A stretch of 64,000 nt of DNA from an uncultured Alphaproteobacteria bacterium (GTDB taxonomy: Bacteria > Pseudomonadota > Alphaproteobacteria > Rhizobiales > Hyphomicrobiaceae): contig CAVUIK010000014.1 of NCBI GenBank assembly GCA_963741565.1, positions 10,550 to 74,549 on the forward strand, written 5' to 3'. Shown here piece after piece: positions 1-58,033 of the stretch. Below the pieces are notes generated by a model. The model had not been told where the DNA came from. It ran no database searches and was given only the letters and a program-made list of their open reading frames with translations. Positions within the stretch are counted from its first letter, which is position 1, and the number at the start of each line of letters is the position of its first letter. The position numbers and the translations under genes are program-made.

Positions 1-573
1 GCGGGCAATCTGTACCAGCCAGTCCTGCATCAGCGGCTGCTGAGTTTTGATTAGGAACTTGTGCAGGACCTCGGTGTCTTCGATCTTGCCCCGCTTGATG
101 ACTTGGGCGCTGAACTCATCGTCGAAAATGCGCGATGGCGACGGTGGCGTGAAACCCTTGGCCTCGAGCCAGTGTGCGGTGGCCTTCATCACGCCTTCGG
201 GGTTCACGTCGCGCGGGCAGATGTGTGTGCACTTGTGGCACGACACGCACTGCCAGATGATGTCCTTGTCGCGCAGCAGCTCGCTCTCGTAACCCATGCG
301 GATCAGATAAATCCAGTAACGCGGATTGAACCGTGGCTCGATAGCGTTAATGGTGCACGCGTTTGTGCAACTGCCACACTGGAAGCAGCGATGAATGTCC
401 TCGCCGCCCGGCATTGCCGCGATCTCTTCCTCCATGCGTTCGTTGTAGTCGGTGACGACGCGCGGCTCGATGAAGGTTGACCAGTGCCCCGACACATCGA
501 TGCCATCGATAACGAGGTTGTCGTGGGTTTTCAGGTCTTCTGGTCGGATCAGTGATTTCTCGTGGATTGGCAT
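1..573 (-). CDS. hdrC2: sHdr heterodisulfide-reductase-like subunit C2; N-terminal 191 codons, 3' end lies beyond the left window edge
   Basis: Absent from the ORF track because it stays open to nt 1. My reverse translation from ATG 573-571 reads MPIHEKSLIRPEDLK...IHRCFQCGSCTNACT...IIWQCVSCHKCTHICPRD...QDWLVQIAR with no stop. It has two ferredoxin-type Cys motifs as in HdrC. The ATG overlaps the TGA of the upstream hyp gene (TGATG). Confidence 0.8.
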   Translation of the reverse strand, partial: MPIHEKSLIRPEDLKTHDNLVIDGIDVSGHWSTFIEPRVVTDYNERMEEEIAAMPGGEDIHRCFQCGSCTNACTINAIEPRFNPRYWIYLIRMGYESELLRDKDIIWQCVSCHKCTHICPRDVNPEGVMKATAHWLEAKGFTPPSPSRIFDDEFSAQVIKRGKIEDTEVLHKFLIKTQQPLMQDWLVQIAR

Positions 574-1481
574 CAGCGCGTCGAGGGGAGCAAGTCCCCG
601 CCTCCCAGGCTGGCAGTGTCACCGGCAGGATGGGACCACGGCCGCAGGTCGGCGCCGCGGCCGTCGAGCCCTAATATCCGCCGCGTATGCTCCAAGGGAT
701 CGGTGGCTCCCGCGTTGAAGTCGGTCTTCAGATAAGCCCCGCCCTGGGCGTTGATGTAGTCGGCGTAGATCTGCGCGCACAGGAGATCCACGTACCACAA
801 CATGTCGCGGAAAATGCCGGTGTCCGCCAGGAACTGAGACAGCTCTTCGCGAAGCACGAGGAAGGTCTCGTGGGTGTCGGGGACGCCGATGACGATGCGG
901 TCGACATCATCGCTGCCGCTCGCCGTGTCGTGCCATATCTCGCGCAGGACGCCCGTGTTCGCATGCGCGTCCCAGACCCACCGGGTCATCAGCGGATAGT
1001 GTTCAGGGTGGGCCGCATGCAGGATCTCAGCGGCGAGATCGCGGATGAAGCGCGGTGGCAAATGCAAGCGCAAAGCATGGGGAGAGGGGGGCGTGCGCAG
1101 GGTGCCCTCGAATGCCGCCACGCGGGCGTCCGCAGTTCCGGGGACATGCGCGTCGTGGAGTAGCGTGACGATGGCGGCGCGCACCTGCGGCCAACCCTGC
1201 TGTGCGATCAAGCTGCCGACGCGACGGCGCACGGTTGGCATAAGCGGTAGGATCTCGTCGAATGCTGCGCGTTCCAACTGCCCGGCGCGGCCGTGTCCGA
1301 GCCTATCCTCCATCACCGCAGCCTTGAGCGCTACGGCTTGAGCGAACCGTTCAATGCCACCCACGTTCTCAGCCGCCGCAATCAACGTGCCCAAAGCCGC
1401 GCGCAGCTTTGGTCCGGAGAGATGGAGGGTCGGCCGTGCGACTGTCGCAGCATGGATATCCACCAGGTCACTCCGCCGCAT
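573..1481 (-). CDS. conserved hypothetical protein in the 'hyp' position of sHdr clusters (between hdrA and hdrC2)
   Basis: The ORF is 573..1556. The version starting at ATG 1481 (MRRSDLVDIH...) overlaps the hdrA stop by 14 nt. I recognise no motif; the call rests on synteny only and the start is uncertain. Confidence 0.6.
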   Translation of the reverse strand: MRRSDLVDIHAATVARPTLHLSGPKLRAALGTLIAAAENVGGIERFAQAVALKAAVMEDRLGHGRAGQLERAAFDEILPLMPTVRRRVGSLIAQQGWPQVRAAIVTLLHDAHVPGTADARVAAFEGTLRTPPSPHALRLHLPPRFIRDLAAEILHAAHPEHYPLMTRWVWDAHANTGVLREIWHDTASGSDDVDRIVIGVPDTHETFLVLREELSQFLADTGIFRDMLWYVDLLCAQIYADYINAQGGAYLKTDFNAGATDPLEHTRRILGLDGRGADLRPWSHPAGDTASLGGGDLLPSTR

Positions 1482-2523
1482 GCGCGTGAGCACTGCCGCG
1501 CGCTGCGGCCAAGGCCGAAAGCGCCGCTGCATTCGCCTGCGCAATGCTGTCGTCAATCGTCTCGGGGCCGATTGCCGCGCCGGCGACGAACACGCCGGGG
1601 CGCGATGTGGCGCCCATAATGCCGTAGGAGTCCTTGCGTGCGATGAAGCCGTGCTTGTGCAGCTCGACGCCGAAGACAGCCGACAGCGTCATGTTGTCGA
1701 CGTTGGGATCCATGCCAATTGCGTGCACGACCATGTCAAAGGGGATCGTGATCGGCCGCTTCACGAGGGTATCTTCGCCCTTCACGATCAGCTGGCGGCC
1801 GTCGCTCGTCACTTCGGCGATCCGGGCCTTGATGTACTTGACCTTGAACTCCTCCTGGCTGCGCCAATAGTAATCGGTCTCGTAGTGGCCGTAGGTGCGG
1901 ATATCCATGTAGTAGATGTAGACATGAGCGTCGGGCAGCTCTTCGCGGATCTCCATGGCCATGTTGGCCGACACAGTGCAGCAGATCTTGGAGCACCATT
2001 CGCGACCGATCTGGCGGTCGCGCGAGCCGACGCACAGCAGGATTGCGACGCGCTTCGGTTTTCGCCCGTCGCTAGGGCATCGCACGCCTGCTCCTGTCGA
2101 GATCATCTGCTCGACTTGCGTCGTCGTCACGACGTCGGGATAGGTGCCGAAGCCCCACTCCGGTTTGTTGTTGCTGTCGAAATGCGTGAAGCCGGTGGCA
2201 AGGATAGCAGCGCCGGCCTCGACGGATTGCCCGTTCGACAGAACCACGCGAAAGGCGCCTGGCGCACCATCGAAGGTCTGCACCTTGGTGTTGAGTGAGA
2301 TCGAAATGGCGGGATCAGACTGGACGCGCGCGACCATGCCGCCGATCGCATCCTTGGCCCACAAGCCGGACGGCACCAGCTTCGCGTACCCCGACAGAAT
2401 GGGAGCGCCGCCGATCTGGTCCATCTTTTCTATGAGCATGCTCGGCTGCCCGACTTGCGACAAGGCATGCGCTGCTGCGAGGCCTGCCGGTCCGCCTCCG
2501 ACGATGAGAATGGGTTTGGTCAT
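1468..2523 (-). CDS. hdrA: sHdr subunit A, FAD/FeS flavoprotein (HdrA-like)
   Basis: 351 aa. N-terminal ILIVGGGPAGLAAA dinucleotide fold. CVGSRD...CSKICC cysteine cluster and C-terminal GVFVAGAAIGP motif, typical of HdrA. Confidence 0.85.
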   Translation of the reverse strand: MTKPILIVGGGPAGLAAAHALSQVGQPSMLIEKMDQIGGAPILSGYAKLVPSGLWAKDAIGGMVARVQSDPAISISLNTKVQTFDGAPGAFRVVLSNGQSVEAGAAILATGFTHFDSNNKPEWGFGTYPDVVTTTQVEQMISTGAGVRCPSDGRKPKRVAILLCVGSRDRQIGREWCSKICCTVSANMAMEIREELPDAHVYIYYMDIRTYGHYETDYYWRSQEEFKVKYIKARIAEVTSDGRQLIVKGEDTLVKRPITIPFDMVVHAIGMDPNVDNMTLSAVFGVELHKHGFIARKDSYGIMGATSRPGVFVAGAAIGPETIDDSIAQANAAALSALAAARGSAHAHAAE

Positions 2524-2533
2524 TGTGCTCTAC

Positions 2534-2654
2534 TCCCTCTCCCGATTGTCTGCATTCCAATGGAGAGGGTCGGGGTGAGGGGCGGCAAAGGGCTCCGAGC
2601 AAGCGGCCACCCTAACCCTCTCCCCGCACAAGTGCAGAGTGCGGAGAGAGGGGA
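2534..2654. repeat. two REP-like imperfect hairpins in the hdrB1-hdrA spacer
   Basis: Hairpin 1: CCCTCTCC (2535-2542) pairs with GGAGAGGG (2572-2579). Hairpin 2: CCCTCTCCCCGCA (2616-2628) pairs imperfectly with TGCGGAGAGAGGGG (2640-2653). They resemble the CCCTCTCCCC/GGGGAGAGGG intergenic palindromes common in Rhizobiales genomes. Confidence 0.6.
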
Positions 2655-2656
2655 TA

Positions 2657-4036
2657 TCATTGCGGCGGCGGCGGGATGACTTCCCGTGTCACCGGCTTGA
2701 ACCCGGGTCCGCTGGTCAGCCGAAGACGTGGATCGTAGAGCTGGTCAGGCTTGGTGCCAGACTGGATCTGGCGCAGATAGGCCTCGAACCCGGCCTTGCT
2801 GGTTTGCCAGTCGATGCCAAGTTTCTCGAGTAAGCCTTCGATGGGTGAGGCGTGCCAGTGCGTCTGCACGATCTTGTAGGGATCGGCGCCACACAGCAGC
2901 GCCGCCATCTGGCAGTCTGCCAAGACGGGCAGCGCCACCTCTTTGCCGTCGCCTTGCGCCTTCGAGATCCACTGGTTCTTGTCGAGGGTGGTGATACAGC
3001 CGGTGTCGTGGCCGATCATCACGTCGGCCTTGGCCTCTTCGACAGCGACGCGAATTTTTCGGTCGATGGCGAACGAGCGCGTGAATTCGCGCTCCGAGAT
3101 GATGTGGCGGAATCCAAAGCCGCAGCAGTCGTACCAGGTCTTGTAGTCGATCACCTGGACGCCCATGGCCTGCATCAGGCCCGTGGAGACGGCGACGCGG
3201 TTGCCGTCAAGAACGCTGTCGTCATAGATCGCATCTTCCGGCACCATCTTGTAGACATGGCAAGCGGGATGGATGGTGGCGCGAACCTGCGAGGCGTCGA
3301 TGATCTGATGCTTTGCAATGTCGCCGCGCACGACATGCAACCATTCGGAATAGTGAACGATCTCTTCGGGAATCAGCAGCTTGCCGTCGACCAGACGTCC
3401 GAGCTTGGCCAGGATCTTCTTCACACTCTCGCGCAGCTTCGCGGAGTGGATCAGATACTGGCGGACCTCCTTGTAGTTGCCGAAGCTCGTGCCGCAGTGA
3501 ACCAGCGGGTAGTAGTGTCCTGCGGTGCCGCCGTGCGCTTTCGCCGAAACGTAGGCCTGATGGAAATTGCGAAGGAATACGGCCGCCAGGCTTTCCAGAT
3601 TGCCGATGCCGGAGCCGTGATAGTTCCACGCCGTGCAGCTGGTCTGGTCGGTCTCGTCGAGGTAGTCGGTGCCAAGCTTGTTCTGCAGCCAGAGGAGCGA
3701 GACTGGATAGCCTGGAATGTTGCCGCACTGACCGCAGCTTTTGTGATGCCAGAGCGCGGTGGTCGGGATCTTCTTGTCCCAGCCATAGAGTGTTTTCACG
3801 GTGACGGGTTTGTGCGCGTCGGTGACGCGGTGGACAACGATCTCGCCATCCTTTTCCAGTTGCCACATGGCGTCGCGGACGTCGGCGACGCGATCCTTGT
3901 TGGTCGCCATCGAGCGCCGGTCGATCCGCTGCTCGACCCATTGCGTCGCGAGCTGCGCCTCGGTGGTCGATAAATTGGCTGGCTTCCATTCGGTACCATG
4001 GCCGGTGAAGCGCTCGCCGTTGGTTGTCTCTGTCAT
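2657..4036 (-). CDS. hdrB1: sHdr subunit B1 (CCG-domain protein, HdrB-like)
   Basis: 459 aa with Cys-rich CCG-type motifs (HKSCGQCGN, WYDCCGFGFRH, GHDTGCITT). It sits between hdrC1 and hdrA as in hdrC1B1A-hyp-hdrC2B2 loci. Confidence 0.85.
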   Translation of the reverse strand: MTETTNGERFTGHGTEWKPANLSTTEAQLATQWVEQRIDRRSMATNKDRVADVRDAMWQLEKDGEIVVHRVTDAHKPVTVKTLYGWDKKIPTTALWHHKSCGQCGNIPGYPVSLLWLQNKLGTDYLDETDQTSCTAWNYHGSGIGNLESLAAVFLRNFHQAYVSAKAHGGTAGHYYPLVHCGTSFGNYKEVRQYLIHSAKLRESVKKILAKLGRLVDGKLLIPEEIVHYSEWLHVVRGDIAKHQIIDASQVRATIHPACHVYKMVPEDAIYDDSVLDGNRVAVSTGLMQAMGVQVIDYKTWYDCCGFGFRHIISEREFTRSFAIDRKIRVAVEEAKADVMIGHDTGCITTLDKNQWISKAQGDGKEVALPVLADCQMAALLCGADPYKIVQTHWHASPIEGLLEKLGIDWQTSKAGFEAYLRQIQSGTKPDQLYDPRLRLTSGPGFKPVTREVIPPPPQ

Positions 4037-4040
4037 GCCG

Positions 4041-4547
4041 TCAGCCCTTCTTCTTCGCCGCCTTCTTCGCCGGCGCCGATTCGGTTTGCGCCATCATCGC
4101 GTCGAGCCGCTTCTGCATTTCTTTTGGGGACACGTCCTCAATATGCTGTTGGAGCATCCAGACATGACCGAAAGGATCCTCGATCTGACCGGAACGATCG
4201 CCGTAGAACTCGTCCGTTGGGGGGCGTGTCAATTTCGCGCCGGCGGCGACAGCTTTCTTGATGGCCGCGTCGCAGTCCTTGACCATGATGGCCATCGCGA
4301 ACGTGGTGCCTTTCAATGACTTCGGTCCGAGAACTTTCATCTCGGGGAATTCATCGGATAGCATCACCACACAGCCGTTGATGTCGAGTTCCGCATGCCC
4401 AAGACGGTTGCCCATGGTGAGCCGGAACCGTTCCTTCGCGCCAAACGCCTTCTTATAGAACGCCACGGCATCCGCTGCTCCCTTCACACGCAGATAGGGC
4501 ATCACGGCTTGGTAGCCGGCGGGGACGTTTGATTTCTTGGCTGGCAT
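4041..4547 (-). CDS. VOC/glyoxalase-fold protein (PhnB-like) with a Lys/Ala-rich tail, inserted between hdrC1 and hdrB1
   Basis: The ORF is 4041..4631. ATG 4547 is preceded by GGAGAC, giving 168 aa. The pattern YQAVMPYLRV...LGHAELDING...YGDRSGQIEDPFGHVWML fits the VOC fold. The stop is only 4 nt from the hdrB1 ATG. Confidence 0.7.
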   Translation of the reverse strand: MPAKKSNVPAGYQAVMPYLRVKGAADAVAFYKKAFGAKERFRLTMGNRLGHAELDINGCVVMLSDEFPEMKVLGPKSLKGTTFAMAIMVKDCDAAIKKAVAAGAKLTRPPTDEFYGDRSGQIEDPFGHVWMLQQHIEDVSPKEMQKRLDAMMAQTESAPAKKAAKKKG

Positions 4548-4652
4548 TGGCGTCTCCGTTTCCGTAGGGCGCAATAGGCCAATGGCCGTATTGCGCCGTC
4601 TCTGTGAGGCGGCGGCGTGCTCCCGGTGCAATGCGCCGCCGGCTATTGCACC

Positions 4653-5393
4653 CTACGCATCCTCCTGCTCTTCGAGGAAGTCTTTCCAGTCGTCGCGCTT
4701 TTCCTGCATGATATCGGTGATGACGTCGAACAAGTTTTCGTCGATACCTTCGAGCTGGTCGAGAACACCGGTCATCTCCCAGATCGTATAGAGTTCGACG
4801 GATGTCTTCAGGTTGACCTCCCAAGCGGTCGCCGTCGTATTCAGGGTTGCCATCGGGATCGCTTGGCGCAGCAACTTCAACGGCGCCTCGACCTTCGATA
4901 TATTCGGACCCCAGTCCGCAAATGCCTGAGCGTTGATCATATCGGGGGCCAGCTGGTTGCCGGTCGAGATCAGCTTCAACATGACACGGCTGAACGGGCG
5001 CAGCACGTCCTTGGCGCTTTGCATTTGATGTTTGATCGCGACTTCGCGCATCAGCATCACGAGGCCGCCGGGCGAATTCTTGAATGGGCAGCGGGCGGCG
5101 CATGTGTAGCACTGCGCGCAGGACCAGATTTTCTCCTGCATCGCGTCGTAGATGCCTTCGAGATTTTCGGTCCACAACAGCTGGACGATCTCGCGCGGGG
5201 AAAAGTCGTAATAGTGGGCGGCGGGGCACGTGGCGGTACAGATGCCGCAGTTCAGGCAGCCATTCAGTTCGTGATCGAAGCGCATGTCGTCTTGCAGATC
5301 GCGGAAGATCGCCTCGAGCTTGGCGCGCGGCACGACGGGCGCCTCGGAGATCGGATCGCCAATGAAATCCTGCACGCGCGTATATGCGCTCAT
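4653..5393 (-). CDS. hdrC1: sHdr subunit C1 (2x[4Fe-4S] ferredoxin-like, HdrC-like)
   Basis: 246 aa. Motifs CLNCGICTATCP and CAQCYTCAARCP. Acidic C-terminus. Confidence 0.85.
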   Translation of the reverse strand: MSAYTRVQDFIGDPISEAPVVPRAKLEAIFRDLQDDMRFDHELNGCLNCGICTATCPAAHYYDFSPREIVQLLWTENLEGIYDAMQEKIWSCAQCYTCAARCPFKNSPGGLVMLMREVAIKHQMQSAKDVLRPFSRVMLKLISTGNQLAPDMINAQAFADWGPNISKVEAPLKLLRQAIPMATLNTTATAWEVNLKTSVELYTIWEMTGVLDQLEGIDENLFDVITDIMQEKRDDWKDFLEEQEDA

Positions 5394-5494
5394 GCGGCCC
5401 TCTCAGCCCAGGCTTGGTCGATTTACCGGCGCGAGCGTAGTCATCAGATTGGGGGTGAGCAAGTAGATATTCAAATTATCGAATATTCTGATCT

Positions 5495-6199
5495 TCAGGT
5501 CGATGATGTGATCCAACCCGTCGCGGAAACGAGGCCTGTCATGATGGGTATCAGCGCGTCCTCAATCGATCGAGTGGCTTGCGCGATCGCTTCGAGGGCG
5601 TCGACTGAGTTGGCGGGCGCGTCCTCGGCTTCCATGATGAGATCCTCAATCATGGCGCGCCGGATGCCCGGATGCCCAGCGAAGCCGAAGGCATTGCGGC
5701 CGATTTGGAAGACGGCGGGTCGATCGGCTGCGTCGATGGCCAGAATTGAGGCATAGGCCGGGGGGCACGGCCGGTCCCGCATGTAGACGGCCATCGGAAA
5801 CGCATCCGGCAGGAAGCCGCCGAGAGCGTCGGGCGTCGAGCGCCGCATCATGGCGAGGTCGAGCACCAGTGGGCTTTGCTCGGCAGTGCCCTCGGCCGCG
5901 AGCGAAAGGATCTGCGCGCCGAGGCCGAATGCGACGACAGGTTTGTCCAGCATCAGGCAGGCGCGAGCGAGGCGAACTTCGGCGTCGAGCGTCGGCAGTA
6001 CGTGATCTGGTGTGGCGGCACCCCAAGGTCCGCCTCCGAGCAATATCAGGCCGTCACCCAGCGTTTCGATGCTCGGTAAATTGCCGCCAGGGGTGAACGG
6101 GCGCGCATAGCCGAAGCGAACGCCCCGCCCTTCGAGATGATCCTCGATGGCGCCGAGCCATTCGGACTGCGTGTGCTGGACGACGGAGACGTACTTCAT
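5495..6199 (-). CDS. class-I glutamine-amidotransferase-like protein, apparently lacking the nucleophilic Cys
   Basis: The ORF is 5495..6223 (GTG). ATG 6199 (MKYVSVVQH...) is the alternative start. It has a GATase1-like fold (LILLGGGPWGA, FGFAGHPG). The usual G-x-C-x-G-x-Q elbow reads AFGLGAQ. Confidence 0.6.
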   Translation of the reverse strand: MKYVSVVQHTQSEWLGAIEDHLEGRGVRFGYARPFTPGGNLPSIETLGDGLILLGGGPWGAATPDHVLPTLDAEVRLARACLMLDKPVVAFGLGAQILSLAAEGTAEQSPLVLDLAMMRRSTPDALGGFLPDAFPMAVYMRDRPCPPAYASILAIDAADRPAVFQIGRNAFGFAGHPGIRRAMIEDLIMEAEDAPANSVDALEAIAQATRSIEDALIPIMTGLVSATGWITSST

Positions 6200-6219
6200 G
6201 GGTTGGCTGGTGCGGGCAT

Positions 6220-7509
6220 TCACACGTCCAGTTCTTCGCCGTCGACGTAGGGGGCACCGGGCTTTTCGCGGCCGAGCTGGTGGCGGATCTTGCGCAGGTC
6301 GGATGGCTTGGGCTGGAACGGATAGCTCGCGATGTTCGATGGCGGGCTGTCACCATAGGGCCGATCGCAGGCTGAGAGATCTTCGCGCACTTTGCCGGGA
6401 CAGCCGGATGTCCTGAACGCGAGACCTTGGTCAATGATCGTATCGAGTTCTGAACCTGGAATACCGAAGTCGGTAATGCGGCCGAGGTCGTCGAAGCGCA
6501 TCTGATCGACGCGCACACCTCGGTAGTCGATGAGATAGCGGGCGAGCTGCACACGCCGCCACTGATCGCGCGGGGTCGCTGGCAGATGATCCATCAGCGA
6601 TCCCTTCTCGGGAAAGAAACAGAACATGTGGCTGTGGCCGCCCATATCGACGAGGCGTTGCACCAGATGTAGGGTCTCTGCCTCGGTTTCGCCCATACCG
6701 ACGATCAGATGCGCGCCGAACTTCTCGCGACCAAAAATGTCGCGCGCGTCCTCCAGGATTTCCCAGTATTTGGCCCACGAATGCGGCGACTGCACCCCCT
6801 TGCCACGCGTGCGGTCGAAGATGTCGGGCGTCACGGCATCGAGCGCCACGGTGAAGATGTCGGCACCAAGCTCATGCAGGCGTTTGACGTCGGCGCGCGA
6901 CATGGTGGTGGGGTTGGACAAGATGGATACCGGCACCGTGGCAGGATCGATGCGGTCCGTCCAATGCTTGAGGACGGTAACCGTATCGGCATCCGAGTTG
7001 GGATGCGTAATCATCGAGATGCACATGCGGTGGAATGGTGTCTTGTTGCCGTCGGCCGCCACCTTCTCGACGATTTCGGCCATCGGAACCGCGGGCCAAT
7101 CGACGCGGATGAAGTTGCGGTCGGCATAGTCGCGATCGGCTTCACGGTGACGCGCCAGTCCGCAGTACGCGCAGTTCGCGCGACAACCTTCGGGATAGGT
7201 CAGCAGCAGGTTGAGACAGCGTGTGCACGCGCAGCCGTACATCTTGCCGGGCATCAGGCCGAGTGTAATCGCGGCCGCGGTCGATATCTGCACGTAGTCG
7301 GGCGAGCGCATGTGGGGCGTCAGGCGGTTATTGTTTGGGAGGTAGACGCCTGCAGGCGGCACGTTCGCGTGTTTGACGCGCGCCCCGTTCTTGGCGTCGC
7401 GCGGCGTGACGCCGGGCTGGCGTGGCTGCATCGCGTCGCTCGCGTTGTGGTCGGCGCCGTGCCGTCCGCTGCGCGAGGGGAGCGCCGCTTCTTGCTTCAA
7501 GCACGACAT
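6220..7509 (-). CDS. radical-SAM protein, candidate LipS1/LipS2-type lipoyl synthase
   Basis: 429 aa. ATG 7509 has a GAGGTGA SD. The CX3CX2C motif is CRANCAYC within a BioB/LipA-like core. It is adjacent to a second radical-SAM gene inside an sHdr cluster. Confidence 0.65.
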   Translation of the reverse strand: MSCLKQEAALPSRSGRHGADHNASDAMQPRQPGVTPRDAKNGARVKHANVPPAGVYLPNNNRLTPHMRSPDYVQISTAAAITLGLMPGKMYGCACTRCLNLLLTYPEGCRANCAYCGLARHREADRDYADRNFIRVDWPAVPMAEIVEKVAADGNKTPFHRMCISMITHPNSDADTVTVLKHWTDRIDPATVPVSILSNPTTMSRADVKRLHELGADIFTVALDAVTPDIFDRTRGKGVQSPHSWAKYWEILEDARDIFGREKFGAHLIVGMGETEAETLHLVQRLVDMGGHSHMFCFFPEKGSLMDHLPATPRDQWRRVQLARYLIDYRGVRVDQMRFDDLGRITDFGIPGSELDTIIDQGLAFRTSGCPGKVREDLSACDRPYGDSPPSNIASYPFQPKPSDLRKIRHQLGREKPGAPYVDGEELDV

Positions 7510-7524
7510 CGATCACCTCATACG

Positions 7525-8598
7525 TCAGGCGGCGCAGGACGATTTCGCCCGGTCTTCGAAGGGGCCGCCGACCTTGATCGAGCAGCAGGCGTGCTGCTGC
7601 ACGTAAGGGCGGCCGATTGCATTTGCCAACGCGACGGCACCGTCGGCCGGGAAGGCAATGCCGTCGAGACCCGCCATGACGGCGTAAGCGTCAGTGACGC
7701 GCTTGTGCATGCCAGCCGGCCGCGCGCAACCGAGCAGGACTTGTTTTTCAGGCAACCGGCAGCGCGCTTCGAGAAAGAACCGGCCGATGTCGCCAGTGGC
7801 GGGCGTCACATACGTGCCAGGCCGGGCATAGAACGGCATGACGACGACCAGGACGAGTGAATGGATGCCGTGCCGAGCGCAAATGTCGAGCGCGTTGGCC
7901 TCGCCGAGGATGCGGCCATAATGCAGGCCGATCACGATGTGCGGGACGACCTCCATGCGCGTCGCGCACAGTGCAGCAAGCGTTGCCTCGAAATCGTCGA
8001 CGGAGCGGTCGAGATGATAGACGTCGCGGATCGTCTCGGTGGCGCCGATGACGTCCATCATAGCCGTGTCGACACCGGCGCTTTCCATCTGCCGCGCGCG
8101 CGGCGCGTCGGTCAGCGCCGAATGGATTGCGATCTTGAGGTGCGGGAAGTCGCGCTTCAGGCCTTCGACGACCGGGAGATAACGCTCGTACTTGATTTCG
8201 TTGCGTCGGTTGGAGCCACCCGAGAGGAGAAATCCCTGGAGGTCCTGCAGCAGGATCAGATCGCGGACCTTCCGATCGAGCATCTCGGGTGACGTCGCGG
8301 GGATCATCGGTTCCAGGATCTTGGCCTGGCAGTGGTCGCAGTCGAGCGCGCAGGCGCCAGCCGTTACCGAGAATGCGGGAAACGAATTCTTGGCGCAAGC
8401 CGAGAGCTCGGACGAGCTATAGTCCTTGAAAGTCGGCGTCGAGAAGCGAATCGATGGTAGCGGCGCGCGTTCGGCGCGGGACTGCAGTTCGGCAACGAGT
8501 GCCGGTTCGAATGTGGCGTCTTCCAGTGGTTCAATGGCGGCGATGTGCCGATGCCAGGGCGTCGACCGGTGTGTGCTCAAAGTTGGTTGTGCCGTCAT
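7525..8598 (-). CDS. radical-SAM protein, second member of the LipS-type pair
   Basis: The ORF is 7525..8724. The internal ATG 8598 (MTAQPTLSTH...) forms an ATGA overlap with the soxB stop (8595-8598). The CX3CX2C motif is CALDCDHC. Confidence 0.65.
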   Translation of the reverse strand: MTAQPTLSTHRSTPWHRHIAAIEPLEDATFEPALVAELQSRAERAPLPSIRFSTPTFKDYSSSELSACAKNSFPAFSVTAGACALDCDHCQAKILEPMIPATSPEMLDRKVRDLILLQDLQGFLLSGGSNRRNEIKYERYLPVVEGLKRDFPHLKIAIHSALTDAPRARQMESAGVDTAMMDVIGATETIRDVYHLDRSVDDFEATLAALCATRMEVVPHIVIGLHYGRILGEANALDICARHGIHSLVLVVVMPFYARPGTYVTPATGDIGRFFLEARCRLPEKQVLLGCARPAGMHKRVTDAYAVMAGLDGIAFPADGAVALANAIGRPYVQQHACCSIKVGGPFEDRAKSSCAA

Positions 8599-10311
8599 GC
8601 TCGGCTCCGGACAACTTTCACGGCGGTTGCCGTATTCGATCTGATAACCTGACGCTTCTTGAGATGGTTGCCGACCACGTCCCAGATCGGCGGGCCTTGC
8701 GTCGCCTCGTTCACCGAGGCCCAACCCGCGACGACATAGACTTTGGCCGGATCGATTGGTGTGCCGGTCTTCAAGTGCGTCATCCCCGAAATACGCTGGC
8801 CCATCGGTTTGTCTACGTTGATCGTATAACCCATTCCGGCAACGCGAACCATGTCACCGCCCTGTTGATAGTAGGGATCGGGATTGAAGAGGTTGTCGGC
8901 GACGTCTTCGAGGATCATTTTGATCATCTCGCCGGTCATCGGCGTCCGATAGGTGCTGGGATAGCTGATCGCGGTGGCGTTGTAGACCTCCTCCCAGTGG
9001 ATGGACTGACCGGGCAGGATCGAGGTGCCCCAACGGAAGCCGGGCGAGAAGGAAATCTCGGCATCACGCTCGGCCAGCAGTGCGTCGCCGATCATATCGT
9101 CGAGCGTTCCATTAAAGTTGCCGCGCCGATAGAGCAGCGTCTCGGCGCGGGCCAGCTCGGTCTTGAGCATGGCCTCGTGTGGTGCGCGGACGCTGGCAAT
9201 CAACGCGGCCATCTCCGGGTCCGGGGTGATGGCGTCCGTCAAGACGGGAATCAAAGCATAGCTATGATCGGACATTCGGCCATCGCGCATCTCGATGTCG
9301 AGCCGAGAGAGAAATTTTGTGTGCGAGCCGGAGGCGACAAGCAACGTCTGGCGAACCTTGACGGGGACCGGGAGAGCGTCATGGGTGTGGCCGGTGAGGA
9401 TAATGTCGATGCCATCAACGCGGCCGGCGAGCTTGCGGTCGACGTCAAATCCATTATGCGACAGCAAGACCACGAGTTGCGCGCCACCTGCGCGGGCGGC
9501 CTTCACGCTCTTTCGAATGTCACTCTCACGAATTCCGAACGACCAGTTGGGCATCATCCATCGCGGGTTCGCGATTGGCGTGAACGGGAAGGCTTGGCCG
9601 ATGACGGCGATCTTGATCCCGGCCTTTTCGATCAGCTTGGTAGATTGGAATACCGGCTCGTCGAATTCGGTGTCACGGATATTGTTGGCGAGGAATGTCG
9701 TGCGGAGCTGACCCGGGCGATACTTGTCGCCGAACAGGGCCCGCATGCGCTCGTGACCGAGGGTGAACTCCCAGTGGCCGGTCGTTGCCTCGAAGCCAAG
9801 CGTGTCGAGGACGGCGGCCATATCTGCGCCGCCTGACTTCATGACCGTGTAGGAGCCGTGAAGTGTATCGCCACCATCGAGTAGCAAGGTCCGGTCGGCG
9901 CCGCGCTCGGCCCGGATCGCCTTGATCAGGGTCGCCATACGGTCCATGCCGCCGACGCGGCCATACGTCTTCGCGAGCTCAGAAAAATCGACGTCCGTCA
10001 GTGCGTACTGGAGATGCGAGCCGGGTGCGATGCCGAAGGCTGAGAGATAGTCCGCGCCGGTGATATGCGGCGGGTGGCCGTAGACGTCGCCGACCCCGAG
10101 ATTGACGGACGGCTCGCGGAAGTAATGCGGCATCAGCTGACCATGACAATCCGTCATGTGCAGGATGGTCAGCTGGCCCTTCGAACTCGAAACGCAAGAG
10201 ATCGGCTTGCGTGATGCGCTGCTGCGCCGCCAAACGGGCCACGCCGCCGGTTAACCCAGTGAGCGCACCTGTGGCGATCGCGACCTGCAGAAAATCCCGA
10301 CGGGAAAGCAT
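8595..10311 (-). pseudogene. soxB: soxB (thiosulfohydrolase) split by a 1-nt frameshift between the Tat signal and the catalytic body
   Basis: The frame from 10311 encodes MLSRRDFLQVAIATGALTG...ADLLRFEFEG (twin-arginine signal). A frame offset by 1 nt encodes QLTILHMTDCHGQLMPHYFREPS...DGGDTLHG...GHWEFT... down to 8595. The switch is at the CCC run 10177-10179. It could be a sequencing indel. Confidence 0.8.
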
Positions 10312-12216: not shown

Positions 12217-13011
12217 ATGATGCCAGCGGAATACGATGTGACGGGCAAGGTCGTTCTCGTTACGGGTGCGGGGCGCGGCATCGGCAAGGGGATTGCCCAG
12301 GTGCTTGCGGAGGCCGGTGCGGATGTTGCGATCAACGCACTGACGCCGACGTATGTCGAGGGGCTTGCCGCTGAGATGTCGGCGGCGACGGGACGGCGGG
12401 TCATTCCGGTGATCGCGGACGTGACCAAGTCGGACGGCGCCAATCGTGCGGTCGCGGACGTGATCGCCAAGCTCGGACGGGTGGATGTGCTGGTCAACGC
12501 GCTTGGCGACTCGATCAGAAAACCTCTCGTTGCGCTTCCTGGCACCGCGGGCAGTGGCACACCGATCTCCGACGACGATCTGCGCTTCATCATGGACATC
12601 AACTTGACCGAGGCGTTGTTGTGCACGCGCGCGGTCGGTCCGCACATGCTCACGCGCAAATCCGGCAAGGTAATCAATGTCGCGGCGTGGACCGCGCATC
12701 AAGGTGGACGGGAGATCGTGCTCTACACGACGGCAAAGACGGCGCTCGCCGGCTTCACACGCGCTCAGGCGCTGGAGTGGGCGCCATTCGGAGTGCAGGT
12801 GAACTGCATAGCGCCGGGGCTGTTTCCCGATGTCGTCACCTCCGGCGAGCAGCGCGTGCGCGAAACCGCGGAGCGGGCGAAGACGGCCGTGCCACTTGGC
12901 CGGCCGGGAAAGCTGCGCGAGGCCGGGCTGCTGGCGCTTTACCTTGCGTCTGGAGCGTCAGACTACATGACCGGCCAAACCATCCTGCTCGATGGCGGAA
13001 TGGGGCTGTAA
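12217..13011 (+). CDS. short-chain dehydrogenase/reductase (FabG-like)
   Basis: 264 aa. TGAGRGIGKG cofactor motif and YTTAK active-site motif. AAGAGGAAA SD upstream. Confidence 0.85.
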   Translation: MMPAEYDVTGKVVLVTGAGRGIGKGIAQVLAEAGADVAINALTPTYVEGLAAEMSAATGRRVIPVIADVTKSDGANRAVADVIAKLGRVDVLVNALGDSIRKPLVALPGTAGSGTPISDDDLRFIMDINLTEALLCTRAVGPHMLTRKSGKVINVAAWTAHQGGREIVLYTTAKTALAGFTRAQALEWAPFGVQVNCIAPGLFPDVVTSGEQRVRETAERAKTAVPLGRPGKLREAGLLALYLASGASDYMTGQTILLDGGMGL

Positions 13012-13045
13012 AGAGCCAGGACGCTGATGGCGGGACGAGCTTGAT

Positions 13046-14185
13046 TTAGAGCAACTGGTCCTGCTGGAGCTGCCAACCGTTGAAGGTCACATCGGCAAAC
13101 GGCACCTGGTCGACGGGAAGGTCTGCGTCGAAGGTGTTCTCGAAGACCGGCACCGAAGGGTGCTCGCCGAGGATGTCGCCGGCAACGAGATCGGCCTCGC
13201 CATTCACGACAGCAAGGGCTGTGAATTCCATCAGTTCCGTTGTGTCGTCACCGCCAAGCAGCGCCGCATCGAACGACGCGAGATCTGCGAGTGCGTCATT
13301 GACGACGGGGTTCAGGGCCACGATGTCCTGTGTGCCGTCGTCGTTGTCGATCGTCTGAGCGATCGCGCGGCCTTGGTTGTCGTAGGTCGTCGTGATCCGT
13401 GCCCATGGCATGCGATTGTCAGGATCGAGGCCGACGGCCGAAGAGACGATCCCGTTGGTGAATTCAATGGTCCAGGTTGTCGTGTCGTCGTCGACGCGGG
13501 TCTGGGAAACCGGAGTCCAGTTGGCATCGTACTGGGTCGTGAGCGTCGTCCAATAGCTGGCACCCGACGGATCCCAGTTGACGATCTGGTGCGTGCCGTC
13601 GTCGTTGTCGGTCATCTGCGTGACGAGGCGGCCCTGGTCATCATAAAAAGTTGCGACCTGCGACCACGTCATCCTGTTTTCTGGGTCGAGCCCAATCGCG
13701 GACTCCGGGCGCCCGTCGACGAACTGGATTGCCCAGACCGTCGTATCGTCGTCGGTCCGGGTTTGCGAGGTCGGGGTCCAGTTGGCATCATAGTTCGTGG
13801 TGAGGGACGTCCAATACTCGGTGTTGCCGGTGTCCCAGGTCACGATCTGGTGTGTGCCGTCGTCGTTGTCGATCGTCAGGGCGGCGGCAATACCTGCACT
13901 GTCATAGGTCGTCGTTGCCGTCGACCAGTCGACGCCATTGTCTGGGTCGACGCCAACCGCGGAGGCCGGCTTGCCGTTCGCGAAGTCGATCGTCCAGGTC
14001 GCGCCGGTGTCGTCGACTCGGGTTTGCGAGATCGGCTCCCAACTGCTGTTGTAGACGGTCGCATACGACGACCAGTACGCGCTGTTGGCGGGGTCCCAGT
14101 TGACGATCCGGTGCGTGCCATCGGGATTGTCGATGAGCTCGGAAATGGGGCGGCCTTGGCCGTCGTAGGTGATCGTCATAGTCAC
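13046..14185 (-). CDS. repeat protein: three full copies plus one partial copy of an 87-aa YD-like unit, then an acidic ~90-aa C-terminal region
   Basis: 379 aa. Units are aa 6-92, 93-179 and 180-266, plus a partial one. The consensus is roughly YDxQGR....DNDDGTHQIVNWD....YWT.LTT.YDANWTP.SQTR.DDDTT.W.I.F..G...SA.GLDP.NRM.W....T. No signal peptide. No family recognised. Confidence 0.7.
   Translation of the reverse strand: MTMTITYDGQGRPISELIDNPDGTHRIVNWDPANSAYWSSYATVYNSSWEPISQTRVDDTGATWTIDFANGKPASAVGVDPDNGVDWSTATTTYDSAGIAAALTIDNDDGTHQIVTWDTGNTEYWTSLTTNYDANWTPTSQTRTDDDTTVWAIQFVDGRPESAIGLDPENRMTWSQVATFYDDQGRLVTQMTDNDDGTHQIVNWDPSGASYWTTLTTQYDANWTPVSQTRVDDDTTTWTIEFTNGIVSSAVGLDPDNRMPWARITTTYDNQGRAIAQTIDNDDGTQDIVALNPVVNDALADLASFDAALLGGDDTTELMEFTALAVVNGEADLVAGDILGEHPSVPVFENTFDADLPVDQVPFADVTFNGWQLQQDQLL
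13316..14170 (-). repeat. diverged 261-bp coding tandem repeat (about 3.3 copies)
   Basis: Coordinates derived from the 87-aa periodicity of ORF 13046..14185. Copies are clearly related at the protein level but diverged at the DNA level. Confidence 0.7.
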
Positions 14186-14855
14186 GGGCTCGCTTGGATC
14201 GCTGGATCGAATTCAAAAGACGTCGAGGCGAGCGCAACGGTCCGGCACCGGGGGCGTGACTGTCCGCGAACGCTCATACAACTGAAAGGCGGTCGTCATT
14301 GCATGTGGGACTTCTTCCAAACGCCAATGTCGCTGAGAAATGTAACGCGACCGCTAAGATCGAAGTCAGCGGCGCTGGATTTGGCTTGGGGGAGAGCCGA
14401 TTTTCGAAGCTGAATTGTAGGGCTGACATCGAGCCGGCCGTGATCGGCGAGGGATGTCTCAAAATGTGCCGAGATTTCTGAAAAAATTCAGGTGTTGCCG
14501 TGGATCGATTGGAGCGGGCGATCAGGATTGTTCCGCAGGCTGGCAACATCAATGGCACAGCTCGGTTACGGGATTGAGCGCATGGGGCGAGCGAACCAAG
14601 GGTACCGGTTGCGGATTGTGAAGCTGACGGCGCCCAACCAGTCAAAACGGTAAGGGGATCGGCGGGCCGGAATGGGATCGTGCGCCACGCCCATTATGCC
14701 TATCGGGGGGCAAAATCGCCTGGATCACCAAGCCGGCTGGCGGGCTGTTTGCAAGCATTAGCATCGCGATCAGCCCCGGGCACTTGTTGCTGTCTGAGGC
14801 TTCCACTTCACACCTACTCGAGGTCCACCTGCAACACGATAGGATTTGAGCATGA

Positions 14856-15030
14856 CCCATCGAAACGCTGCTGATCGCATACCTCGGCACCTTTCTCGGT
14901 GCCCTTGGCCTTCCCACTGGCCTTCCTGGCGGCCCACCACGTGATGGCAAGCCACATTGTCCGATTCATGTCGCGCCGCTTCTTTGAAGCGATCCGTGGC
15001 GTCGACACGCTGATCTGGGCGTTGCTCTGG
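14856..15030 (+). pseudogene. internal fragment of a phnE-like phosphonate ABC permease (scar, one frameshift)
   Basis: Two frames read PIETLLIAYLGTFLGA, then LAFPLAFLAAHHVMASHIVRFMSRRFFEAIRGVDTLIWALLW. This resembles the PhnE permease core. There is no start, and similarity ends at 15030. Confidence 0.35.
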
Positions 15031-15047
15031 TCCCTGCCGCGTCGTCT

Positions 15048-15263
15048 CAGGAGAAACGCACCGTACGCCTTGGCCGTATTGAACTCGCTTTGCGTCAGAG
15101 CAATGCGGCTCTCGGGATCACCGACCACGGGCCGCGTAATGTCTCGGCGCGGGAAGCGGAAACGAAGATCTCCGGCAAGCAAGGTTCTCGCTCGCGCGAT
15201 GGGGCTATCCTTGCCGACGACGGATGGACCGACAATCAACGCGAGTATCCCGCGTTCGATCAT
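15048..15263 (-). pseudogene. 5' fragment of phnN-like ribose-1,5-bisphosphokinase (scar)
   Basis: The first 72 aa of ORF 14814..15263 (MIERGILALIVGPSVVGKDS...FPRRDITRPVVGDPESRIALTQSEFNTAKAYGAFLL) match the PhnN P-loop and RxITR pattern. The remainder of the ORF is unrelated low-complexity sequence. Confidence 0.45.
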
Positions 15264-15832: not shown

Positions 15833-17347
15833 ATGCGTCTTGAGCCTGTAGCCTCGATGACAATGCCCCGTCCCCTGCTCGAACTTCGAGGCCTCGGAAA
15901 GTACTACGGTGGCAGGGCGGCGATCAGCGATGTTTCGCTCTCCGTATTGAAGGGCGAGGCCCACGCAATCGTCGGCGAGAATGGCGCCGGCAAGTCGACA
16001 CTGATCAACATCCTGTCGGGAAACCTGCGACCTGACACGGGCAGCCTTCAGCTTGATGGGGCGCCGCTGAAACTCGCGAGCCCGGCGGCGGCGCGCCGCC
16101 ACGGCATTGCGGTGGTTCACCAGGAACTCACAATTATTCCGGCATTGACAGTGGCTGAGAACATTTGTCTTGGTCGGTTGCCCTCGCGCCGCTTTGGCTT
16201 CGTGGATTTTGCAGCCCTGCGTCAGACTGCTGCCGAGGCGCTTCGCCGGCTACACCTCGACATCGACCCGGACACGCTTGCCGGCGTGTTGCCGATTGCG
16301 CAGCAGCAGATGGTCGAGATCGCCAAAGGCGTCGCGAGCGGAGCCCGCATCCTGGTCATGGATGAACCAACCTCATCACTTGGGCCACGGGAGGCCGAGC
16401 GTCTATGGGTCGTAACGGCCGAACTTCGGCGTCAAGGCACGACCGTTCTGTTTGTCTCGCATAAGCTCGACGAAGTGTTGGCCAATGCTCAAACGGTGAG
16501 CGTTATGCGCGACGGCCGTCTGATCGCGAGCGAGGCGGCCGCCGGCTACGATATAACGCGTCTCGTCGCACTGATGGTTGGTCGCAACATCCCTGAGCAG
16601 GTTCAGCGTCGCACGGTTTCGACCACTGATACGGTGCTCCGCGTGCGTGGGCTTTCAAAGGGAACTGAGTTCATCGACGTCGGTTTTGACGTTAAGGCCG
16701 GCGAGATCATCGGGCTTTCTGGCCTTGTGGGTTCCGGTCGGACAGAAGTGGTTCGCTGCATCTTCGGCGCAGATCGACCGGATTCCGGCGAAGTCGAGTT
16801 CGCAGGCCAACGATTGCCGGGCGGCGATCCTCGAACAGCAATTGCAGCCGGGATGGGTTTTGTGCCTGAGAGCCGGAAAGAGCAGGGCCTGTTTTCCAAT
16901 CTCGCAATCGTCGAGAACCTGTCGCTGCCAACTCGGCATACCGGTCCGTTCGGGCTGCTCCAGTCGCGCAAGGAACGGCAAGCCGGAAACGACGGAGTTC
17001 GCGCACTCAAGATTAACGCGCGTTCGCTTGACCAAAGCGTCGCAACCTTGTCCGGGGGCAATCAGCAGAAAGTGATCCTGGCGCGCTGGCTGCGGTTGGC
17101 TCCGCGCCTCCTGATTGTCGATGAGCCGACACGGGGCATTGACGTTGGCGCCAAAGCCGAAATCTACGACATCTTGAGAGCGCAAGCGGAGGCTGGCCGT
17201 GCGGTTCTGCTGGTATCCTCGGAGCTGCCGGAACTCCTCGCGCTTTCTGACCGCATTATTGTCATGCGCGAGGGCAGGATCGCCGGCGAACTCAATCGCG
17301 CGGATGCAAACGAGGAGAGGCTCGGCAGACTTGCAATGGGATACTGA
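15833..17347 (+). CDS. sugar ABC transporter ATP-binding protein with two ABC domains (RbsA/MglA type)
   Basis: 504 aa. Walker A motifs GENGAGKST and GLVGSGRTE, signature LSGGNQQK. The start could instead be the ATG at 15857. Confidence 0.9.
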   Translation: MRLEPVASMTMPRPLLELRGLGKYYGGRAAISDVSLSVLKGEAHAIVGENGAGKSTLINILSGNLRPDTGSLQLDGAPLKLASPAAARRHGIAVVHQELTIIPALTVAENICLGRLPSRRFGFVDFAALRQTAAEALRRLHLDIDPDTLAGVLPIAQQQMVEIAKGVASGARILVMDEPTSSLGPREAERLWVVTAELRRQGTTVLFVSHKLDEVLANAQTVSVMRDGRLIASEAAAGYDITRLVALMVGRNIPEQVQRRTVSTTDTVLRVRGLSKGTEFIDVGFDVKAGEIIGLSGLVGSGRTEVVRCIFGADRPDSGEVEFAGQRLPGGDPRTAIAAGMGFVPESRKEQGLFSNLAIVENLSLPTRHTGPFGLLQSRKERQAGNDGVRALKINARSLDQSVATLSGGNQQKVILARWLRLAPRLLIVDEPTRGIDVGAKAEIYDILRAQAEAGRAVLLVSSELPELLALSDRIIVMREGRIAGELNRADANEERLGRLAMGY

Positions 17348-17375
17348 AAATCGCGCCTTGCGCGGTGACAAGGCG

Positions 17376-18335
17376 ATGTCTGGCCGCGCCACGTACGCGA
17401 CCGGGCGCCGCGTCATGCGCCATATGGTCTGGGTCATTCTGGCTGCAGTCGTCCTTGTTCTTGCCGTCTCGCTTGACGCCTTCTGGACGCTGCCGAATAT
17501 TCTCAACATTCTCAATCAAACATCCATCGTTGCGTTGCTTGCGATCGGCATCACGCTGGTGTTGGTGACGGGCCATTTCGATCTATCTGTCGGGGCGATT
17601 GTGACGCTCGCGGCCGTTGTTGCGATCCAAATGCAGCCGGTCGATGCGGCAGGCACGCTCTCGGCAATTGCGGTGCCCTTGTTGCTGGGAATGATGGCTG
17701 GCGCAATCAATGGCGCGTTTGTCGGGGGTCTTGGCGCGAACTCGATCGTAACCACGGTCGGCATGCAACTCGCGCTTGGTGGCCTCACCCTGGTCCTCGT
17801 TGCCGGCCAACATGTGCGGGTCGACAATGCGTCGGCAGCCTTCGTTGCGATCGGCGGTCGCGTGCTGGGCGTTCCGGTGTCCGTGATGATACTTGTGGCG
17901 ATTGTCGCGCTCGCACATCTGCTGTTGGCTTACACGCTGCTCGGGCGGCATGTTCGGGCCATTGGCGGCAGTCCAGCAGCGGCAACGCTGGTCGGGATCC
18001 CGATCGCGCTCCGTGTGATCCAGATGTTCATGATCTCCGGCGTATTGGCGGCGCTCGCGGGCATAATCATGGCGGCGCGTGTGCGCAATCTCGATCCAAC
18101 GTCGGGGGCCGGCTTGGAGCTGGCGGCGCTCACGGCGGCGGTGCTTGGGGGCACGAGGTTGACGGGAGGGCATGGCGATGTGCTGGCCACACTGGGCGGC
18201 GCACTCATTCTCGGTGTTGTCGCCAATGCGATGCGCTTACTGGATTTCTCCTACAGTCTGCAGTTGCTGTTGCAGGGCCTGGTGTTGCTCACAGCGGTCG
18301 CCCTCGATGCGCGCTACAGGGCGACCGATCGATGA
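17376..18335 (+). CDS. sugar ABC transporter permease (RbsC/AraH type)
   Basis: The ORF is 17199..18335. ATG 17376 (MSGRATY...) precedes about 10 hydrophobic segments (NQTSIVALLAIGITLVLVTGHFDLSVGA). Confidence 0.85.
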   Translation: MSGRATYATGRRVMRHMVWVILAAVVLVLAVSLDAFWTLPNILNILNQTSIVALLAIGITLVLVTGHFDLSVGAIVTLAAVVAIQMQPVDAAGTLSAIAVPLLLGMMAGAINGAFVGGLGANSIVTTVGMQLALGGLTLVLVAGQHVRVDNASAAFVAIGGRVLGVPVSVMILVAIVALAHLLLAYTLLGRHVRAIGGSPAAATLVGIPIALRVIQMFMISGVLAALAGIIMAARVRNLDPTSGAGLELAALTAAVLGGTRLTGGHGDVLATLGGALILGVVANAMRLLDFSYSLQLLLQGLVLLTAVALDARYRATDR

Positions 18336-24726: not shown

Positions 24727-24744
24727 CCCTGTGTAACTCCTAAC

Positions 24745-55555: not shown

Positions 55556-55626
55556 ATCCCCCGCGATCGACTTTGGTTAGGTGACCTCCGCGTAGGCAGC
55601 GCGTGTTGAACGGCCACGGGGGCATC

Positions 55627-57282: not shown

Positions 57283-57297
57283 CAGGGAAGTCGCAAT

Positions 57298-58026: not shown

Positions 58027-58033
58027 GGCCACC

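Follow-up and report, generated by a model that had tools for sequence, protein, structure and literature searches.

How does a lone soxB come to overlap the first of two lipoyl synthase genes at the head of an sHdr sulfur-oxidation cluster, and does this arrangement call for a new link between the Sox and sHdr systems? The question is raised by positions 1-10,311 of a 64,000-nt stretch (hereafter the window) of contig CAVUIK010000014.1 (GCA_963741565.1), from an uncultured member of the Hyphomicrobiaceae. A preliminary description of this DNA proposed that one unit may encode a hybrid Sox/sHdr system, in which SoxB might serve some carrier in place of SoxYZ. Our analysis indicates that the region is probably a compacted and rearranged copy of the known Hyphomicrobiaceae sulfur-oxidation island, comprising a type I sHdr-LbpA system (LbpA, lipoate-binding protein), the LipS1/LipS2 lipoyl synthase, and a truncated Sox component.

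Analysis of open reading frames (ORFs) together with searches against Pfam and NCBIfam models bore out the ten co-directional minus-strand genes and their identities, namely soxB, lipS1, lipS2, the GATase1-like lipX, shdrC1, a VOC gene, shdrB1, shdrA, the conserved hypothetical shdrH, and shdrC2. Synteny was determined gene by gene with tblastn across about 90 loci; related loci and contigs used for comparison carry L numbers. When coordinates were rechecked, every junction listed earlier proved exact: an ATGA overlap between soxB and lipS1 (8595-8598), gaps of 15 nt between lipS1 and lipS2 and of 4 nt between the VOC gene and shdrB1, a 14-nt overlap of shdrA with shdrH, and a TGATG between shdrH and shdrC2, in which one base is common to the stop codon and the ATG. 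A GTGA overlap of lipS2 with lipX had been absent from that list. Larger spacers separate lipX from shdrC1 (101 nt), shdrC1 from the VOC gene (105 nt), and shdrB1 from shdrA (133 nt), and a GGAG lies 6 to 9 nt before the lipS1 ATG.

The tight soxB-lipS1 junction is real. A survey of relatives found it in four uncultured Hyphomicrobiaceae contigs, JBJXDZ010000105.1 (L001/L081), JGI Ga0394878_0003874 (L088), ERZ25039524 contig_3399 (L083), and contig_17334 (L082), where lipS1 comes right after soxB as in the window, with an overlap of 1 to 4 nt in L082, L083, and L088. Compared with the window, their SoxB proteins are 76 to 80% identical, HdrA 85 to 89%, and LipS2 up to 92%. The closest syntenic locus, L001/L081 (HdrA 89%), reads soxA, soxX, soxB, lipS1, (GNAT), lipS2, lipX, dsrE3C, shdrC1, (DUF3368), shdrB1, (x), shdrA, shdrH, shdrC2, shdrB2, hyp, lbpA2, soxT, soxY, soxZ. 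L088 reads soxA, soxX, soxB, lipS1, lipT, lipS2, lipX, dsrE3C, shdr; L083 reads soxA, soxX, soxB, lipS1, lipT, lipS2; and L082 reads soxA, soxX, soxB, lipS1, then unrelated genes. L081 and L088 resemble the window in having lipS2, lipX, and shdr downstream. Unlike the window, all four contigs carry soxA-soxX upstream of soxB and none has a VOC gene inside shdr; dsrE3C is retained in L081 and L088, and lipT in L088 and L083, both genes being absent from the window. Their soxB is intact in L081, L082, and L088, and is split in the error-rich L083. More widely, among the nearest SoxB homologs (74 to 80% identity), soxA-soxX immediately precedes soxB in 9 of 9 distinct related contexts. These include L016 and L087, in which soxA, soxX, soxB are followed by an operator and shdrC1, L084/L085, in which they are followed by a VOC gene, and L086 and L089, in which unrelated genes follow.

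Small insertions were also observed in the soxAXB-lip-shdr arrays, at 12998-13573, 17239-18067, and 19491-20249 of L081 and at 20272-20664 of L088. The inserted genes encode a GNAT acetyltransferase, a DUF3368/PIN-like protein, an uncharacterized 252-amino acid (aa) protein, and OsmC, and the island appears to tolerate frequent gene insertion. Such arrays were without mention in the sHdr literature searched, as was the VOC protein; both the arrays and the internal VOC gene are rearrangements of known parts, in a gene order that is new.

In Hyphomicrobium denitrificans, periplasmic SoxXA, SoxYZ, and SoxB convert thiosulfate to SoxY-bound sulfane sulfur, and the sulfur is imported and oxidized to sulfite by cytoplasmic sHdr with lipoylated LbpA. 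LbpA is lipoylated by sLpl(AB) together with LipS1/LipS2, which insert sulfur atoms into LbpA-bound octanoate (PMC10451225, PMC10332631, PMC11094781). Signal peptides are absent from LipS1, LipS2, and sHdr, which the published model places in the cytoplasm (PMC10451225, PMC11094781). These roles probably carry over to the window genes. The locus falls into two modules, the first made up of soxB, lipS1, lipS2, and lipX (8595-10311 down to 5495), and the second of shdrC1, the VOC gene, shdrB1, shdrA, shdrH, and shdrC2 (5393 to the left edge) behind a candidate operator and promoter at 5467-5503. Some uncultured Hyphomicrobiaceae, forming a small clade, carry a soxA-soxX-soxB unit right before their lip or shdr genes. 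Adjacency of soxB and lipS1 would then represent operon consolidation of co-regulated genes and an inherited order, with no biochemical link between SoxB and lipoate maturation; since all these genes respond to thiosulfate, the junction would reflect their co-expression. Compared with its relatives, the window is a reduced version of this arrangement, from which soxAX, lipT, slpl(AB), and dsrE3C are missing, with a VOC gene inside shdr and soxB interrupted.

The same junctions had suggested instead that one transcriptional unit encodes a hybrid system, in which SoxB, tied to lipoate maturation, hydrolyzes a thiosulfonate borne by a different carrier from SoxYZ. The ATGA overlap, its recurrence as a tight junction in L082, L083, and L088, and the want of soxYZ or soxXA in 64 kb all fit this proposal. 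Its premise of an unusual neighborhood did not hold in relatives, where soxAX immediately precede soxB in the contigs that share the junction and L001 has lbpA2, soxT, and soxYZ just past shdrB2. Because SoxB has a Tat signal, it is expected in the periplasm, a different compartment from LipS1, LipS2, and sHdr; its sequence is that of an ordinary member of its clade, and the gene is frameshifted here. Together with the operator and promoter conserved between lipX and shdrC1, these observations make a hybrid system very improbable.

That operator bears directly on whether the genes form one unit. The lipX-shdrC1 spacer is AT-rich and holds a perfect palindrome, ATATTCGATAATTTGAATAT, 74 to 93 nt upstream of shdrC1. 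No other site in the 64 kb matches ATTC-N8-GAATRT exactly, and the palindrome overlaps the sole minus-strand promoter-like match (5503-5475). Of 68 related loci, 45 have its core in the corresponding position, and these make up 45 of the 72 sites found in 1.62 Mb. In these relatives its distance from dsrE3C is about 90 to 130 nt on the upstream side; loci that lack dsrE3C have it about 90 nt ahead of shdrC1. Its conserved form is ATATTC-N8-GAATAT followed by CTTG, and it is also found upstream of lipS1 in L005 (1878) and L002 (1861). Promoter and terminator scans of 1-12.5 kb as a whole gave no more matches than chance would (2 where 2.9 were expected, and 5 where 8.6 were). In H. denitrificans, fragments upstream of dsrE3C (lipX-dsrE3C) and of lipS1 bind SoxR and sHdrR (PMC10451225, PMC12423496), and thiosulfate and SoxR jointly control the sox, lip, and shdr genes (PMC10451225). 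Judging by position and conservation, the palindrome is a probable SoxR/sHdrR-type operator. With this palindrome and the promoter-like site between lipX and shdrC1, the ten genes would form at least two regulated units, soxB-lipS1-lipS2-lipX and shdrC1 onward, with read-through possible, which argues against the single unit proposed earlier.

Type I sHdr systems are defined by shdrC1B1AHC2B2 in one syntenic cluster (PMC11094781), and C1, B1, A, H, and C2 are present here in this order on one strand, the VOC gene between C1 and B1 being the sole departure. Across related loci, shdrC1 is 74 to 95% identical, shdrB1 71 to 93%, shdrC2 64 to 90% (compared with the gene following shdrH), and shdrH 42 to 72% (compared with the gene at the same position). 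With sHdrA as query, 80 loci at 74 to 89% identity were recovered from GTDB species genomes, nearly all of them in Hyphomicrobiaceae or other Alphaproteobacteria, and a metagenome scan with sHdrH returned relatives only, all at or below 69%. The window ends within shdrC2. Since the gene after shdrC2 is shdrB2 in 75 of 75 related loci, and 66 of 67 have lbpA2 no more than 3.6 kb away, shdrB2 and lbpA almost certainly lie just past the left window edge, as the preliminary description had supposed they could; this expectation rests on gene order in relatives.

For the two radical-SAM genes, a hidden Markov model check returned the LipS1 and LipS2 models as first matches, not BioB or LipA, in agreement with their earlier assignment. 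The lipS1 product has NF053742 as its sole NCBIfam match (E 2.4e-52, 178 bits), and that of lipS2 matches NF053743 (E 6.6e-56, 190 bits) against 25.5 bits (E 7e-06) for BioB, with no LipA match. Both contain a PF04055 domain and the radical-SAM CX3CX2C motif, as CALDCDHC in LipS1 and CRANCAYC in LipS2. Identity to syntenic relatives is 56 to 82% for lipS1 and 57 to 92% for lipS2, and membership in the two families is supported by syntenic orthology with lipS1 (73%) and lipS2 (82%) of Hyphomicrobium sp. GJ21 (L005). The adjoining lipX is 62% identical to the lipX-position gene of GJ21. In the published Hyphomicrobium cluster, lipX is described as a putative glutamine amidotransferase (PMC10332631). 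Here it has no Pfam match and scores 49 bits against an NCBIfam glutamine amidotransferase cut-off of 250. In 8 of 8 aligned LipX sequences (the window, L005, L081, L088, L002, L035, L055, and L027), G-[LVI]-G-[ASC]-Q (GLGAQ in the window) replaces the Cys elbow and H-P-G replaces H-P-E. On this reading of motifs, LipX is probably not an amidotransferase and not catalytic as such.

In the preliminary description, soxYZ, soxXA, tusA, dsrE3, lbpA, and a lipoate ligase were reported missing from the 10-kb region, and this held for all 64 kb. No tblastn match was found in the window for soxA, soxX, soxY, soxZ, soxT, soxR/shdrR, tusA, dsrE3C, lipT, slpl(AB), or lbpA, with Pfam-validated proteins of GJ21 as references and soxA and soxX also taken from closer relatives. 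Best E-values for soxXA and soxYZ were 0.15 to 0.7; slpl(AB) and lipT gave none at E<=1e-6 anywhere in the window, and in a motif scan of the 64 kb no ORF ended in the SoxY GGCGG motif. Of a Sox system composed of SoxXA, SoxYZ, and SoxB, soxXA and soxYZ are thus absent from the window. Nor was a remnant of a soxA promoter or operator apparent upstream of soxB, where eight relatives, locally aligned, scored no higher than shuffled controls did (best p about 0.04 to 0.08). LbpA2 of the source contig was not among the best 120 LbpA2 homologs, a list saturated at >=82% identity.

Several observations weigh against an ordinary, if compacted, sulfur-oxidation island. The window itself lacks soxXA, soxYZ, and lbpA, such that an ordinary neighborhood is read from relatives that are 57 to 92% identical. 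SoxY of the source contig was not among the best 120 SoxY homologs, a weak hint, and soxYZ may be absent from that contig. The LipS1 and LipS2 scores fall under their curated cut-offs (178 vs. 230 and 190 vs. 270 bits, respectively), and in a rough neighbor-joining tree of LipS1 the soxB-linked sequences share one subclade but are not cleanly monophyletic. Lastly, the SoxR/sHdrR binding motif is not spelled out in the sHdr literature searched, the operator here being assigned by position and conservation.

Although first described as one intact gene (8595-10311), soxB consists of two ORFs in different frames. The N terminus with its Tat signal (MLSRRDFLQ...) is encoded in ORF 9979-10311 and the enzyme body (...LTILHMTDCHGQL...) in another frame, which runs to the stop at 8595 and is open back to 10250, with its first ATG at 10157. 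DNA alignment with six relatives placed one extra nucleotide in 'gagTTcgaag', at ~10,184-10,185. The deposited 77,004-nt source contig carries the same 520-aa SoxB fragment (P0001), as gene callers predicted. Removal of one base yields a 571-aa SoxB that scores 799 bits against TIGR04486 (cut-off 550), covers model positions 1-554 of 556, and is 74 to 80% identical to the intact 570- to 571-aa SoxB proteins of relatives, aligned end to end. Its signal has an SRRDFL motif and scores 22.0 bits against TAT_signal (cut-off 22.7). At columns that are otherwise invariant, the repaired protein has 10 private substitutions, compared with 2 to 17 among relatives. Relaxed selection on soxB was rejected, the 10 private substitutions falling inside the range of the relatives. 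Programmed frameshifting is unlikely; the site has no slippery or stop-codon context and relatives show no shift there.

Chances are roughly even between recent inactivation of soxB and an error of assembly, and either is compatible with a rearranged island. An assembly or consensus error, which would leave SoxB intact, exported, and functional with soxXA and soxYZ encoded elsewhere, is close to an even bet: one base restores a 571-aa, 799-bit protein with no further lesions, the source is an NCBI/ENA metagenome-type contig, and related long-read-style contigs are error-rich, soxA, soxB, and lipS2 all being split in L083, with L013, L025, L031, and L073 behaving likewise. This reading has to contend with soxB as the sole broken gene of ten, its usual partners soxAX being lost as well, and with a site that is not a homopolymer run. 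Those same facts suit a genuine frameshift, tentatively but seriously entertained here, whereby the Sox part is decaying (soxAX lost and soxB a fresh pseudogene) while sHdr-LbpA and the lipoate synthases are kept, for instance for sulfane sulfur from organosulfur compounds such as dimethyl sulfide (DMS) and methanethiol. The extra base lies in a TT dinucleotide with no long homopolymer, the nine other genes and the large ORFs of the window (up to 1,096 aa) are uninterrupted, and lipT, slpl(AB), and dsrE3C are missing along with the soxA-soxX pair that precedes soxB in all related contexts; a PRK07586-family enzyme is found in its place. As cited in PMC11094781, the first link drawn for sHdr was to DMS degradation in Hyphomicrobium. 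Decay must nevertheless be squared with a soxB body open for 520 codons and no excess of private substitutions, because of which any inactivation would be very recent, as well as with the occurrence of single-base indel errors in metagenome assemblies and the chance that soxXA and soxYZ are encoded in another part of the genome.

A third possibility takes the frameshift as real and the 520-aa product as a signal-less cytoplasmic SoxB, translated from ATG 10157 and using TusA, DsrE, or LbpA as its cytoplasmic sulfur carrier. This ATG is in frame and ahead of the first metal-binding motif (M-T-D-C-H-G), no interruption of the ORF follows it, and gene callers predicted the truncated form. We consider it extremely improbable: no Shine-Dalgarno sequence precedes ATG 10157, the intact Tat signal in the neighboring frame points to a recent accident and not to an adapted start, and no such form occurs in relatives except the error-rich L083, which is shifted at a different site. 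Just as remote is the related idea that the 520-aa SoxB, co-expressed with LipS1, LipS2, and LipX, acts on a thiosulfonate or persulfide held by a non-SoxYZ carrier. If true, a cytoplasmic SoxB would represent a side branch of the Sox pathway that leads straight into sHdr.

The VOC gene is the other departure from the usual island. Solved relatives of its product are TioX, At5g48480, and PhnB, and its C-terminal tail is Lys-rich. A VOC gene between shdrC1 and shdrB1 was found in 10 of 74 loci (L011, L017, L018, L022, L038, L042, L050, L087, L090, and L092) and one directly follows soxB in L084/L085; from this recurrence, the VOC-fold protein is a candidate accessory factor of sHdr clusters. 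Two spacers inside shdr carry nested inverted repeats predicted to form hairpins of unusual stability. The shdrB1-shdrA spacer folds with a minimum free energy of -62.4 kcal/mol (z -3.1; 0 of 200 shuffles as stable), and the shdrC1-VOC spacer region (4548-4660) has inverted repeats, CTATTGCRCCCTACG, in a hairpin with z about -3.0. The GGAGAGGG/CCCTCTCC repeats of the former and the CTATTGCRCCCTACG repeats of the latter are local and occur nowhere else in the window. No match was returned by an Rfam search of the region.

Table 1. Features of positions 1-10,311 of the window, with the evidence for each assignment.
Feature	Position	Strand	Evidence
shdrC2, 5' part (191 codons), extending past left window edge	1..573	-	Fer4 dicluster and HdrC/QmoC-type matches
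shdrH, conserved hypothetical between shdrA and shdrC2	573..1481	-	no Pfam/NCBIfam family
shdrA, FAD/Fe-S flavoprotein	1468..2523	-	HdrA models, E 8e-66; Pyr_redox_2
shdrB1-shdrA spacer with nested GGAGAGGG/CCCTCTCC inverted repeats	2524..2656	-	inverted-repeat search and folding
shdrB1, CCG-domain catalytic subunit	2657..4036	-	HdrB, E 2e-31; CCG domain
VOC/glyoxalase-fold protein	4041..4547	-	PF00903, 59 bits
shdrC1, di-[4Fe-4S] ferredoxin-like subunit	4653..5393	-	HdrC models, E 1e-24; Fer4_8
Palindrome ATATTCGATAATTTGAATAT, candidate SoxR/sHdrR-type operator	5467..5486	.	position and conservation
lipX, GATase1-like	5495..6223	-	weak glutamine-amidotransferase matches; synteny
lipS2, radical-SAM lipoyl synthase subunit	6220..7509	-	NF053743, E 7e-56; Radical_SAM domain
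lipS1, radical-SAM lipoyl synthase subunit	7525..8598	-	NF053742, E 2e-52
soxB body, 520 codons from first ATG, no signal peptide in frame	8595..10157	-	TIGR04486 after repair
soxB N-terminal ORF, Tat signal and first ~43 residues, then out-of-frame tail	9979..10311	-	three-frame translation and DNA alignment

A 126-nt spacer separates soxB from the next gene upstream, which encodes an unrelated thiamine pyrophosphate (TPP) enzyme of the PRK07586 acetolactate-synthase-like family (775 bits) and is followed by an SDR gene and a sugar ABC transporter. Assignment of the TPP enzyme as a sulfoacetaldehyde acetyltransferase was rejected given its match to PRK07586. Elsewhere in the window, a 149-aa ORF (14814-15263) matches the 179-residue PhnN (ribose 1,5-bisphosphokinase) model over residues 1-69 only, with the match continuing in no frame; it appears truncated or degenerate and is possibly a second damaged gene. 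A tRNA-Gly(CCC) gene (24140-24214) is followed by an IS630-like transposase (24664-25879) that is split into a helix-turn-helix ORF (24664-25347) and a DDE_3 ORF (25226-25879) in overlapping frames, and G+C is lower to the right of it (about 0.58 at 32-38 kb). This region may be an island inserted beside the tRNA gene. At 55603-59075, a large 560-aa ORF and, after it, ORFs bearing one and two CxxCH heme motifs (57487, 58569, and 58857) point to a likely cbb3-type cytochrome oxidase cluster.

Taken as a rearranged island, the locus implies that Sox, lipoate-assembly, and sHdr modules are freely reshuffled among uncultured Hyphomicrobiaceae, with soxAXB-lip-shdr arrays in one small clade. It supports the published picture of these modules as one thiosulfate-responsive regulon and does not require new biochemistry. 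The ATATTC-N8-GAATAT palindrome offers a concrete SoxR/sHdrR operator candidate across many genomes, and the recurrence of a VOC-fold protein inside shdr clusters or after soxB singles it out for a possible accessory role. The genome from which the window derives may also be a natural case in which sHdr and the lipoate synthases were kept while Sox was lost.

Three known systems place the locus in context. The internal-VOC shdr clusters, including that of Hyphomicrobium sp. CS1BSMeth3 (L018) and those of L011, L017, L022, L050, L087, L090, and L092, have the order shdrC1-VOC-shdrB1-shdrA-shdrH-shdrC2 as in the window, with VOC proteins 57 to 82% identical. Unlike the window, most have no lip genes within 10 kb and dsrE3C usually precedes shdrC1; among them only L087 has soxAXB directly upstream. 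In the LipS1/LipS2 lipoyl synthases of archaea and bacteria (NF053742, NF053743; Tanabe et al. 2023, PMC10332631), the dedicated ligase sLpl(AB) or LipM is usually encoded beside lipS1/lipS2. Near the window pair there is no gene for the partner ligase sLpl(AB) or the reductase LipT; the pair resembles these systems in being adjoining and beside shdr.

The third system is the H. denitrificans region Hden_0678-0706 (PMC10451225, PMC10332631, PMC12423496). From Hden_0683 to Hden_0706 its order is lipS1, lipT, lipS2, slpl(AB), lipX, dsrE3C, shdrC1B1AHC2B2, hyp, lbpA2, P450, tusA, soxT1B, soxR, soxS, soxXA, soxYZ(B) (PMC10451225), and Hyphomicrobium sp. GJ21 shows this published order, as validated with Pfam. 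The window differs in lacking lipT, slpl(AB), dsrE3C, soxXA, soxYZ, soxR, shdrR, tusA, and soxT in 64 kb, in its VOC gene between shdrC1 and shdrB1, and in a frameshifted soxB that lies upstream of and overlaps lipS1, whereas soxB of H. denitrificans ends a separate soxYZB unit. Nevertheless, the families of lipS1, lipS2, lipX, shdrC1/B1/A/H/C2, and soxB are common to both, and the two regions are alike in the order and orientation of the shdr core, in the GTGA/ATGA-type overlaps of their lip genes, in an operator-bearing lipX-shdr spacer, and in the presence of sox genes nearby.

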